A stretch of DNA of 35,454 nt from Lentisphaeria bacterium (GCA_963582235.1 CAUZRT010000003.1:1-35454), one strand, 5' to 3'; positions 10,104 through 32,801 are shown, counted from the stretch's first letter. Translations and numbers: made by a program. Notes: generated from the letters alone by a model not told the origin.

Positions 10104-10166
10104 CAAAAAAAATTATGAAATTTTTTCCCGGTCAGTATTGCAATGAAACTAGGGTCACTCTATAAT
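10104..10166 (+). promoter_or_regulatory. sigma70-type promoter with upstream A/T tracts (UP-element-like)
   Basis: TTGCAA (10138-10143), a 17-bp spacer and TATAAT (10161-10166), preceded by AAAAAAAATTATGAAATTTTTT in an otherwise GC-rich sequence. Confidence 0.75.
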
Positions 10167-10394
10167 AGAGATTCGACATGGGAATTACTCATCCGATTCC
10201 GGGGTAATTTTCGCTTTTAGGTAGCACAACAAATGCCCGCATCTCGGGGCCCTTGACGGACTACATCGGCAGGTTTCCATCCGGCTTCCGTCGACTGCGG
10301 AATCGGTATATTTCGTCCGTGTCAACAGCCGGAGTTTCCATCCGTCCCTGTTGCAAAGCCAACCCCGTACAACGTGGAGCCGAGTTAGGCAATA

Positions 10395-11663
10395 ATGTAC
10401 CACAAGAATGATCCGATGAAAGTCTATATGCAGGATATAGGCGAGATCCCACTGATCACCAAGCTGGAGGAAGTTGAACTGGCCGCCAAGATCAAGGTTG
10501 GTGACGAGCTGGCGCGGCAAAAGCTGATCAAGGCCAATCTGCGTCTGGTCGTCAAAATTGCTCATGATTTCAAAGGATTCGGGCTTCCATTACTTGACCT
10601 GATATCCGAGGGGAATATCGGATTGATGCGCGCCGCCGAGAAATTCGACCCGGCCAAGGGCGCCAAGTTCAGCAGTTACTCAGCTTGGTGGATCAAGCAG
10701 TCCATGCGCCGGGCGCTGTCCCAGAAGAGCCGAACGATTCGCGTCCCCGTCGCCTCCGCCGGTAAAATCAATAAGATCCGCACGGCCAAGATCCAACTCG
10801 CCGAGAAGCTTGGCAGGGTAGCGACAGATACTGAAATCGCCGAGCATCTCGACTTTACCAAGCGAACCGTACAGGGATTGAAACTTGCCGACCTGAAAAC
10901 CTTCTCGCTTCATGATCCGATTCAAAAAGGCGAAGAAGGTAGTTTCGAGGACATCATTCCCGACTCCTCGGCGTCGACTCCCGATGAAATTATTGAAGAC
11001 ACCGAAAGCATCCAGCGTCTGCGGGGTCTCATTCACAACCTGGATGAGCGCGAAAAGACGATTCTGATCATGCGTTACGGCCTCGATGGAAATCGCCCGA
11101 AGACGTTGGAGGAGGTGAGCCGGATCATCGGCCGTACCCGCGAACGCGTCCGCCAGATTCAGATGCAGTCGCTGAAAAAACTCAAGGCCATGATCGATGA
11201 TGAGACGTTCGATAATGACGGGAAACGGCTGTTGCAGTCGCAGAAGTCGCAAGAAGAGGGTTGGCCGTCATCCGACGCTGCCGGACTGTCGAACAACGGC
11301 AAGCGCATGGCAGCAACGGATGCAGACGATATGAAAAAGGCGTCAGGCGGGCGAGCCAATTTCCGGACTAACGGCCGCAGCCAATTATTCCGTACGATGT
11401 CGAAGAATGGGCAGCCTTTGATCGATGCCAAGATTCGGCGAATGAAGAATGGGGCTCTGGGGGCTGCGAAAGCCGGACTGAGCACCCTGAAAATATCAAC
11501 CCGCAGCATGAATAGTCTGCGGTCCGTGGGTGTCCGGTCGGTGGCGGAATTGGCGTCGAAGTCTCCAGTCGAACTCCTCGGCATTCGCTTCTTTGGCGAG
11601 AAATGTCTGGCGGAGGCTCAGTTGGCGTTGGCTAAATACTACAAGGTTTCGAATCATCGGTGA
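10395..11663 (+). CDS. RpoD/RpoS-like (group-2-like) sigma70 factor fused to a C-terminal RNAP alpha-CTD domain
   Basis: Region 1.2 DPMKVYMQDIG, region 2 NLRLVV...DLISEGNIGLMRAAEKFDP...WWIKQ, region 4 TLEEV...RERVRQI. No region 1.1. The C-terminus LKISTRSMNSLRSVGVRSVAELASKSPVELLGIRFFGEKCLAEAQLAL resembles alpha-CTD. Confidence 0.9.
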   Translation: MYHKNDPMKVYMQDIGEIPLITKLEEVELAAKIKVGDELARQKLIKANLRLVVKIAHDFKGFGLPLLDLISEGNIGLMRAAEKFDPAKGAKFSSYSAWWIKQSMRRALSQKSRTIRVPVASAGKINKIRTAKIQLAEKLGRVATDTEIAEHLDFTKRTVQGLKLADLKTFSLHDPIQKGEEGSFEDIIPDSSASTPDEIIEDTESIQRLRGLIHNLDEREKTILIMRYGLDGNRPKTLEEVSRIIGRTRERVRQIQMQSLKKLKAMIDDETFDNDGKRLLQSQKSQEEGWPSSDAAGLSNNGKRMAATDADDMKKASGGRANFRTNGRSQLFRTMSKNGQPLIDAKIRRMKNGALGAAKAGLSTLKISTRSMNSLRSVGVRSVAELASKSPVELLGIRFFGEKCLAEAQLALAKYYKVSNHR

Positions 11664-11705: not shown

Positions 11706-11754
11706 AACAGCGCCGGCCCGGGAACGATTTCCGGGCCGGCGTTGTTTTGTTTTT
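11706..11754 (+). terminator. Rho-independent terminator after the sigma gene
   Basis: AACAGCGCCGGCCCGGGAA-CGA-TTTCCGGGCCGGCGTTGTT stem followed by TTGTTTTT. Confidence 0.85.
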
Positions 11755-11768
11755 GGCTGGGTGTTTGG

Positions 11769-11929
11769 GCGTAACTACTCAGGTGGAAGGGGGATAGTGG
11801 ACGATGGATGGTGGACAGTCGCGACCGAGTTCCAGCGTTTAACGCCAAATTAGCAAAGGCCATTTCTGTGAACATGCGACGGACGTTGGACGGATCTTCT
11901 GCCTCCACCTTCCACCTGAGTAGTTACGC
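11769..11929. mobile_element. MITE-like element, copy 1
   Basis: Perfect 22-bp inverted repeat: GCGTAACTACTCAGGTGGAAGG (11769-11790) and CCTTCCACCTGAGTAGTTACGC (11908-11929). A diverged copy lies at 33839-33974. Confidence 0.75.
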
Positions 11930-12363
11930 TCGGGCTAGTCCGAAAATTAGCGATCCTATAATGATTGTCCAGCGGCCGGGCGCCAGCCACCGCCAGCCTC
12001 CTCACGTGCGGCATTGAATCGTAATTTCCGGCAGATTCGCCGTCAGCGGCGGCGGTTCACGCGTCACCGTTGCCCGGCGAAGGGGTCGGGGAGAGAAATC
12101 GAGAGGTGGATCAAATCAGTATGGTGGGCGCTAGGTTCCGGCGATGAGAACATAGCGGGCTTGCACTCTCGCTCGGGTCAAGCTGCCAACCTCCGGCCGG
12201 CCGGATCGATCCGACGCGGCCATGCGCTGCCAGCCACAGCCCGCGGTTGCCGCACACTCTGCCACGAACTCACCTGAAATTCACGTGCGGCTGCTATGCA
12301 GATACTTGACGCCGGACTATAATCCACGAATGCATCGGCGGTTTTACACAAACCGGAGCCCGA

Positions 12364-12384
12364 TATCGGCTATCGGCTATCGGG
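12364..12384. repeat. Heptamer tandem repeat (TATCGGC)
   Basis: TATCGGC TATCGGC TATCGGG. Confidence 0.6.
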
Positions 12385-12427
12385 ATCGCTTATGGCGGGG
12401 CTAGTAGTCCGCACAGCGTACTTAAGG

Positions 12428-12640
12428 TGACGGAAAATACCCAAATACCCAAGGGATGTCACAATCCGAATGGCGAAGCTATTTGCGGTCGTGGGTCGGC
12501 CGGTCTCTCCCGCACCTAATGACGAGTGACGACGTTGCTTTCGCCTGTGCGCGTCCGGTCGTTTGGACGGCGGATTTGGAATTTCCCGCCAGGGGGGGCG
12601 GCCAGGCTGTCATTCCCTTGGGTATTTGGGTATTTCGTCA
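12428..12640. repeat. Inverted-repeat element at the aspS 3' end (second MITE-like type)
   Basis: Perfect 22-bp IR: AAATACCCAAATACCCAAGGGA (12435-12456) and TCCCTTGGGTATTTGGGTATTT (12614-12635). It extends imperfectly to TGACG/CGTCA, which includes the aspS stop codon. Confidence 0.7.
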
Positions 12641-32458: not shown

Positions 32459-32746
32459 ATGAGTCAGATGTATTACGTCTACGTCTTATACAGTATTAGT
32501 CACGACAAACTCTACATAGGCAGTTGTGCCGAACCGGATGAGCGATTGATCGCACACAATGCCGGGCGCGGGGGTTGGGTCCAAGCGATACCAGACCCTG
32601 GACCCGCGTTCTGCTCGAAGAGTATCCGGATCAGCCTGGCGGGTAAGCGCGGGAGGTCCCTAAAATCCGGATGGGGGCGCAGATGGCTGCAAAAATTCCT
32701 TAACTACAAGGAGGGGTGGCTGAGTGGTTTAAGGCAACGGTCTTGA
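32459..32746 (+). pseudogene. Small stand-alone GIY-YIG nuclease, internally scrambled
   Basis: YYVYVLYS...LYIGS...RL..HN.G and LKSG.GR motifs. The central SKRY/RPW..VLLEEY segment is out of frame, and the expected KRE reads KRG. Confidence 0.85.
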
Positions 32747-32801
32747 AAACCGTCGTGGGCTTTTCGGTCCACCGTGGGTTCGAATCCCACCCCCTCCGCC
32801 A
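32710..32801 (+). tRNA. tRNA-Ser(UGA)
   Basis: Acceptor stem GGAGGGG/CCCCTCC, anticodon arm ACGGT-CTTGAAA-ACCGT, long variable arm, GTTCGAATC T-loop, G73 and encoded CCA. Confidence 0.97.

Follow-up and report, generated by a model that had tools for sequence, protein, structure and literature searches.

The stretch of DNA analysed here (35,454 nucleotides, nt, of Lentisphaeria bacterium, GCA_963582235.1 CAUZRT010000003.1:1-35454; hereafter the window) carries a gene whose single open reading frame (ORF) joins an RNA polymerase (RNAP) sigma-70 factor to a homologue of the C-terminal domain (CTD) of the RNAP alpha subunit by way of a long disordered linker (Table 1). Both domains are textbook material, and the contact between alpha-CTD and sigma region 4 on DNA proximal to the upstream (UP) element is well characterised; what appears to be new is their fusion within a sigma factor. 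Public records list proteins of this kind under no other names than 'sigma-70 family RNA polymerase sigma factor' and 'primary sigma factor'. An earlier note, made from the DNA sequence alone, had not recognised the architecture as a characterised one, and in agreement with this, literature searches judged from listings and abstracts found no description of a sigma/alpha-CTD fusion; a mention in a survey or a domain database is possible.

Table 1. Coordinates of the fusion gene and its flanking features in the window (CDS, coding sequence; aa, amino acids; pLDDT, predicted local distance difference test).
Feature	Position	Strand	Details
CDS, sigma-alpha-CTD fusion	10395..11663	+	422 aa + stop
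Sigma core, regions 1.2-4	10410..11186	+	Pfam
Disordered linker	11205..11468	+	residues 271-358, 88 aa, low pLDDT
Alpha-CTD-like helix-hairpin-helix domain	11475..11630	+	Pfam, residues 361-412; folded unit ~359-421
A/T-rich tract A8-TTATGAAA-T6	10105..10126	+	21/22 bases A/T, ends 11 nt before -35
Sigma-70-type promoter-like site	10138..10166	+	TTGCAA-17-TATAAT, 10/12
Intrinsic-terminator-like hairpin	11706..11755	+	19 pairs, 12 G-C, T-rich tail; inverted repeat I3

The sigma part was assigned by Pfam, which placed Sigma70_r1_2 at residues 6-39 (40.3 bits), Sigma70_r2 at residues 44-114 (65.8 bits), Sigma70_r3 at residues 124-198 (56.2 bits), and Sigma70_r4 at residues 213-264 (50.2 bits), all four above their cut-offs. 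The window protein gave no Pfam match to Sigma70_r1_1, the hallmark of group 1 sigma factors, and has 5 residues N-terminal to region 1.2; the earlier reading that regions 1.2 to 4 are complete and region 1.1 is absent was thus upheld by the scan. The best NCBIfam models for this part were RpoS (TIGR02394, 272.8 bits at a cut-off of 378.7) followed by RpoD, with RpoD_Cterm (TIGR02393) at 238.7 bits against a cut-off of 354, and every equivalog cut-off was missed. Structure comparison with Foldseek matched the sigma part to SigA and RpoS chains with E values of 6.5e-16 to 1e-12 and 37-41% identity. In an alignment of 29 fusion members, the sigma core was near-invariant, the N-terminus was conserved as MYxxNDPMKAYMQDIG, and all five Pfam domains scored above threshold in every member. 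The protein is an RpoD/RpoS-like four-region sigma-70 factor without region 1.1. A full-length AlphaFold2 model built from the same 29 sequences gave the sigma domains pLDDT values of 79-93, a disordered linker, and a confidently folded C-terminal domain; such a model had been proposed as a check.

The C-terminal domain is an alpha-CTD homologue according to Pfam, sequence matches to the Protein Data Bank (PDB), and fold. RNA_pol_A_CTD (PF03118) scored 44.1 bits in the window protein (cut-off 23.8, E 1.7e-11), at the place where the earlier note had suspected an alpha-CTD (about 11475-11640), and the model was passed by 29 of the 29 aligned members with a best E value of 2.9e-18. The match of the NCBIfam rpoA models was confined to residues ~74-130 of the 137-aa tail, and Pfam found no alpha N-terminal domain (NTD), the part for dimerisation and core assembly, in the fusion protein. 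Searching the PDB with phmmer returned almost exclusively RNAP alpha chains, the best being 7vpd_A (E 1.7e-5), and paired 'STRSMNSL' with 'TVRSYNCL' and 'IRFFGEKC' with 'IRNFGAKS' or 'VRNLGRKS' of PDB alpha subunits; the pairing of STRSMN with TVRSAN and of FFGEKC with NLGKKS that had been noticed by eye therefore holds, as do the retained equivalents of R265, N268, G296, and K298. The domain was modelled with pLDDT values of 91-95 within the full-length protein and 93.6 when modelled alone. Among its top fold matches in the PDB was 7vpd_S (template modelling score, TM, 0.85/0.95; root-mean-square deviation 0.6 Å; 56 columns; 38% identity), other matches included 1lb2_B from the E. coli alpha-CTD/CAP/DNA complex (TM 0.83) and 3n97_C from the alpha-CTD/sigma-4/UP-DNA complex (TM 0.81), and the Foldseek matches listed at ranks 1-37 were RNAP alpha chains throughout.

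Ten CTD residues were invariant over the 29 members (L365, S368, R370, N373, L394, R398, F400, G401, C404, and E407), a set made up of hydrophobic-core positions together with R370, N373, G401, and E407, while K403 was present in at least 90% of the aligned members. From the alignment I take R370, N373, G401, K403, and E407 to correspond to R265, N268, G296, K298, and E302 of E. coli, respectively. In E. coli, the '265 determinant' with which alpha-CTD contacts DNA consists of R265, N268, N294, G296, K298, S299, and E302. Five of these seven classical positions are accordingly kept in the family, invariantly or nearly so. The invariant residues persist among members that share no more than 38-71% identity in this domain, and the fusion, its DNA-contact set included, is under purifying selection. 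The '261' determinant of alpha-CTD contacts sigma and the '287' determinant contacts activators; the residues equivalent to these two patches (363-366 and 390-393) varied across the family. The fused CTD has a median net charge of +2, and +6 in the window protein, as opposed to -4 for the CTD of the rpoA gene in the same genome. The two CTDs of this genome share 33% identity (15/46), which rules out that the fused domain is a recent copy of its own rpoA CTD and means that the capture is old.

Between the two folded parts lies the linker, described beforehand as a low-complexity charged stretch of roughly 90 aa and found to be rich in A, G, K, R, S, D, and N with a net charge of +7. Residues 282-338 had pLDDT values below 50 in the full-length model, and a short helix was weakly predicted at residues 345-351. 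Over 57 family members the linker measured 43-88 aa (median 62), with the window protein at the upper end; its sequence was unconserved and not alignable across the 29 members, in which its net charge ranged from -10 to +9. In being disordered and variable in length it resembles the natural linker of alpha.

The fusion is not confined to this assembly. A search of 5.8 billion proteins found the five-domain architecture in 60 of the 120 best clusters, including that of the query itself, with 54-78% overall identity, lengths of 375-427 aa, and contigs of up to 8.8 Mb. The phylum was surveyed with a profile of 16 fused CTDs in 401 genomes: matches of 95-100 bits occurred in five of them, all from the order of the window and in frames of 407-437 aa, and no fusion was found in the other 396, where the matches were at the level of rpoA with a best E value no better than ~1e-16; two genomes, G004 and G008, gave a second match of a different kind. 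Five additional genomes from the same order or family each had the fusion (92-104 bits) next to the sigma core on one contig. Fusion and a separate rpoA CTD occurred together in 10 of 10 same-order genomes from five families, a count by the profile search that leaves out genome G412. Among species-representative genomes, 8 of the 80 loci listed were full-length fusions, all in Lentisphaeria or Lentisphaerales metagenome-assembled genomes (MAGs), and the remaining 72 were sigma cores alone (Victivallales, Lentisphaera, and others). The ORF was also spanned by contigs from three metatranscriptome libraries of three studies and from an independent DNA run; these contigs showed no indel or joint within it, and the sole differences were 4 single-nucleotide polymorphisms in the DNA run. 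The fusion is thus real and present in RNA libraries as a single ORF, and it occurs throughout a single marine order of uncultured Lentisphaeria, alongside a normal rpoA. The idea that orthologues end after region 4 did not survive the cluster search, and the proposed survey of architecture and taxonomic spread turned out in favour of the fusion.

That the fusion might be a functionless product of faulty assembly, gene calling, or decay is extremely improbable. For such an origin speak the fragmented source genome (442 contigs, 88.8% complete) and the absence of the CTD from two of 62 close relatives. These are P0052, which is 90% identical in the sigma core and turns unrelated after 'RQIQMQS' in a frameshift-like manner, and P0055, which is 80% identical in the sigma core, lies on a contig of 46 kb, and is truncated 67 residues past its region 4 motif. 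An assembly artefact or frameshift is, however, excluded by the recurrence of the same ORF in many assemblies and long contigs, by the same-order genomes and the 8 named species-level MAG records, and by the absence of indels in four sequencing runs from four studies, and the invariant residues of an otherwise divergent domain are hard to reconcile with decay.

The rpoA gene of the source genome lies on another contig (C35), encodes 348 aa in the context rpsD-rpoA-rplQ, and retains a CTD (90.3 bits) in which the R, N, and N-F-G-x-K-S motifs are all preserved. The check on rpoA that had been called for therefore came out as anticipated, and the logic of a third, sigma-borne alpha-CTD holds, with rpoA keeping its own beside it. 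The region 3 model found only two region-3-bearing sigma factors in the genome, namely the fusion and a 467-aa protein on contig C43 (locus L004:1264-2667, minus strand). The latter has all four regions, a stretch of ~165 residues that separates region 1.2 from region 2 and resembles a non-conserved region, and a 'KLRHPSRRK' end, and it is the most RpoD-like sigma of the genome (PRK05658 321 bits, cut-off 555; TIGR02393 272 bits as compared to 238.7 for the fusion); full-length relatives of its type are spread across the class. With the genome 88.8% complete, the low sigma count may reflect missing sequence and not gene loss. The four other same-order genomes that were inspected had four or five sigma matches apiece, with the fusion and short paralogues in each, an RpoD-like sigma of 452-528 aa in three (G070, G247, and G337), and a 397-aa frame in the fourth (G352).

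Three forms can be told apart among the close relatives of the sigma core (~74% identity): the fusion, a short form of ~285-295 aa, and an N-extended form of Victivallales and others, which carries a Lys/Ala/Pro-rich or Lys/Ser/Glu-rich extension of 100-400 aa and has nothing added C-terminally. A maximum-likelihood tree was computed from 40 sigma cores (fusions from 17 of the 60 clusters, 9 N-extended and 6 short forms, and another 8 ORFs taken from genomes of the order; loci L035 and L046 were left out because the core-extraction pattern missed them). All 17 fusion rows were monophyletic with a support of 98/96, their sister was a pair of short paralogues from the same order (joint support 98/91), the next group outward was a clade of short forms (98/99), and the N-extended forms were basal. 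A very long branch led to the RpoD-like sigma that has a non-conserved region. A single fusion clade implies that the fusion arose once, after duplication. The sister short paralogues lack region 1.1 as well and have no C-terminal extension, and the segments 'WWIKQSMRRAL' of region 2.4 and 'GRTRERVRQIQ' of region 4.2 are identical in them and in the fusion, for which reason the -10/-35 read-out of the core should match among the paralogues.

When 1.84 billion representatives were searched exhaustively with HMMER, the family was recovered as one cluster at 50% identity (P0029, 669 bits). Two divergent fusion representatives were seen in addition, P0143 with 59% core identity and a CTD score of 65 bits, and P0156 with 54% and 26 bits. 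Together with the fragment P0219 these were the only ones with RNA_pol_A_CTD among 37 representatives scanned, which had been selected from the 150 listed because they had a C-terminal extension or more than one matched stretch. Other region-1.1-less sigmas in this set (metagenomic representatives P0159, P0160, P0165, P0180, and P0208) had C-terminal extensions of 100-250 aa with repeated helix-turn-helix-like (HTH-like) units; the extension of P0159 matched HTH_28 in Pfam, and many other scanned extensions had no Pfam match. The N-extensions (P0067 and P0087; loci L066, L115, and L116) consisted of Lys/Ala/Pro repeats, e.g. KKAEPVKKAAPA units, with an acidic stretch after them. The three loci had been candidates for further fusions, as their tblastn rows seemingly reached the linker, and proved to be Lys-rich N-extended forms. 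The N-extension of Lentisphaeria is histone-H1-like and similar to the Lys-rich N-terminus found in primary sigmas of actinobacteria. This suggests repeated acquisition of auxiliary DNA-binding parts by the sigma family.

Upstream of the fusion gene, the A/T-rich tract and the promoter-like site (Table 1) form an UP-element-like arrangement within a genome of 57% G+C. The upstream A/T fraction of 0.74 ties for the top among 90 strong intergenic promoter-like sites of the same genome. A promoter-like site (at least 9/12, at most 450 nt upstream) was found at 8 of 11 orthologous loci (the window and L051, L052, L054, L057, L009, L042, and L044), with three loci lacking a site by these criteria, and in all eight the 30 nt before the -35 element were 63-83% A/T, mostly with an A run, even at 58-61% G+C. 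These tracts could mean that UP-type elements are used in the order, or that the gene regulates itself. The implied leader is ~220 nt long (10173-10394), compared to ~77-228 nt for orthologues. Contigs of RNA libraries from two studies start at 10143 and 10188 and are deeper than the contigs upstream; as contigs cannot show a transcript start, this is a weak hint of one. Flanked by its own promoter-like site and terminator-like hairpin, the gene looks monocistronic. Its neighbours in the window are an LPG_synthase_TM protein and aspS, and a comparison of four loci revealed four different neighbourhoods and no conserved neighbour such as an anti-sigma factor or an activator. Rfam gave no match to a structured RNA in the leader or in the 980-nt gap downstream, the only match being a tRNA at 32710-32798. 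The ~880 nt from the sigma terminator to the 3' end of aspS (11756-12637) contain no long ORF and no Rfam match, are traversed by contigs of RNA libraries, and include two inverted repeats (11769-11794/11904-11929, 26 nt, 96%; 12435-12456/12614-12635, 22 nt, 100%).

What the fused domain does can be judged from its conservation and the geometry of the holoenzyme. I lean slightly towards the view that it acts as a sigma-tethered third alpha-CTD, which would bind A/T-rich DNA upstream of the -35 element and give the sigma factor a promoter preference of its own. A DNA-binding role at this position is suggested because R370, N373, G401, E407, and K403 are conserved, the CTD is basic, and the fold is that of alpha-CTD. 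The A/T tracts before the promoter-like sites of the gene itself and of its orthologues also speak for it. In 3N97 and other established structures, region 4 ends at the upstream edge of the -35 element. With the C-terminus of region 4 of the fusion placed likewise in the holoenzyme, the tethered CTD would serve as a third alpha-CTD that is sigma-specific and acts in cis. A tether of 43-88 residues should let it reach minor grooves from ~-40 to beyond -90, and its binding to the minor groove of A/T-rich DNA ahead of the -35 element would raise promoter affinity or the rate of association, i.e. promoter capture. The fusion sigma would in this way gain a subset of promoters apart from those of its sister sigmas with the same -10/-35 reading. 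Built-in UP-element selectivity or activator independence, as proposed in the earlier note, would be conceivable further effects.

Several observations weigh against such a role. Two of the seven DNA-contact positions are altered, with the equivalent of N294 (position 399) replaced by F, Y, A, or S, and usually aromatic, and the equivalent of S299 replaced by an invariant Cys (C404); further contact residues are lost in the divergent representatives P0143 (K to N) and P0156 (N to S and K to Q); and the CTD is missing from the close relatives P0052 and P0055. At promoters, a crude genome-wide profile over 278 promoter-like sites in intergenic DNA gave no A/T peak at any particular position before the -35 element. 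A/T runs of at least 5 occurred at 21% of the 90 strong intergenic sites versus 5% of 101 coding controls, but this excess may stem from intergenic DNA being richer in A/T, and the ordinary alpha CTDs could read UP-like tracts equally well. The two changed contact positions also mean that the specificity may depart from that of the classical UP element. A more pointed version would have the altered CTD, with its aromatic residue at the N294 position and Cys at the S299 position, recognise an upstream motif of its own, whereby promoters of the order would bear a three-part sigma-specific code (-10, -35, and an upstream element read by sigma) dividing transcription among paralogues of identical -10/-35 specificity; this I consider possible but doubtful.

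Alternatively, the fused CTD could bind no DNA at all and be a protein docking site, a private contact for regulators or for RNAP itself, which seems unlikely, if somewhat less so than the readings discussed below. Class-I-type activators, Spx-like factors, or NusA could be envisaged as the regulators, since alpha-CTD is a known activator hub. Many of the top fold matches come from activator complexes (9dvt with RpaA, 8igr with CII, 8hvr with AfsR, 1z3e with Spx, and 1lb2 with CAP), and the non-classical pair of invariant Cys404 and usually aromatic residue 399 could make up a new interface. However, it is the DNA-contact set that is invariant, whereas the equivalents of the '287' and '261' patches vary, and the four differing neighbourhoods offer no conserved partner gene.

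The absence of region 1.1 gives rise to two further readings, both of them quite improbable. In one, linker and CTD would replace region 1.1 as a regulatory or autoinhibitory module in cis, either masking region 4 or region 2 in free sigma until released upon core binding, or being subject to modification or proteolysis. C-terminal extensions regulate ECF sigmas in this manner, and the weakly predicted helix in the linker would fit such a module, but the full-length model showed no confident packing between domains (predicted TM score 0.32) and the linker is conserved in neither sequence, charge, nor length. In the other, free sigma would bind promoters ahead of the core enzyme by means of sigma regions 2 and 4 and the CTD, and so mark them beforehand. 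Sigma-70 derivatives without region 1.1 do bind promoter DNA in the absence of core, and a basic CTD would strengthen the affinity of free sigma for DNA. Both readings are weakened by the short sister paralogues, which also lack region 1.1 and yet carry neither extension nor CTD.

If the sigma-tethered third alpha-CTD is what the conserved contact residues suggest, its consequences concern the division of labour within RNAP. UP-element recognition and contact with activators are functions of the alpha subunit of the core enzyme and are the same whichever sigma is bound; with the fusion, recognition of upstream elements would become sigma-specific, and the holoenzyme would hold three CTDs. Should the domain moreover read its own motif, promoter selectivity would be set naturally by a sigma-borne alpha-CTD and not by the core enzyme. 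The fusion could serve as a natural test case for the recent proposal that promoter search is accelerated by DNA-binding domains on flexible tethers, would show a possible route by which the regulons of recently duplicated sigmas with identical -10/-35 reading heads diverge, and could be a ready design for orthogonality of synthetic promoters and sigma factors.

Among known systems, the closest is the E. coli complex of alpha-CTD, UP element, and sigma-70 region 4 (3N97 and 1LB2), in which the same two domains occur and alpha-CTD adjoins sigma region 4 on its upstream side. The fused CTD superposes on its E. coli counterpart and has the R, N, G, K, and E contacts in common with it. In E. coli, however, the two domains belong to separate subunits, whereas in the fusion they form one polypeptide with a 43-88-aa tether, and the '261' patch that touches R603 of sigma is unconserved in the fusion, where the position equivalent to R603 is the acidic D268 (consensus 'IEDE'). 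With RpoA the fusion shares the homologous CTD, but it has neither the alpha NTD nor the rpsD-rpoA-rplQ context, both of which are left to the true rpoA on contig C35. With RpoD and RpoS (groups 1 and 2) it shares regions 1.2, 2, 3, and 4 and the 'RTRERVRQ' segment that reads the -35 element, while it lacks region 1.1 and the non-conserved region and has the tether and alpha-CTD in addition.

C-terminal additions as such are familiar from extracytoplasmic function (ECF, group 4) sigmas, e.g. ECF41 and ECF42, in which an extension with SnoaL-like or TPR domains modulates activity in cis. These sigmas consist of regions 2 and 4 only, whereas the fusion also has regions 1.2 and 3, and what it adds is a DNA-binding domain of an RNAP subunit. 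A pairing of the two domains in one chain was further seen in Verrucomicrobiota, in proteins of ~356-400 aa at loci L049:1456-2523 (plus strand, genome G008) and L050 (minus strand, 402-aa frame, genome G004), where RNA_pol_A_CTD (49.4 bits) is combined with Sigma70_r4 (29.5 bits). These differ from the fusion in that the CTD is N-terminal, regions 2 and 3 are missing, and an unrelated part of ~200 aa follows C-terminally; they are not sigma factors, and in them alpha-CTD and sigma region 4 have come together independently a second time. The reverse arrangement is known from the two-hybrid chimeras of Dove and Hochschild, in which sigma region 4 reportedly replaces alpha-CTD on alpha and such tethers are said to be functional in RNAP; the natural protein described here instead adds alpha-CTD to sigma.

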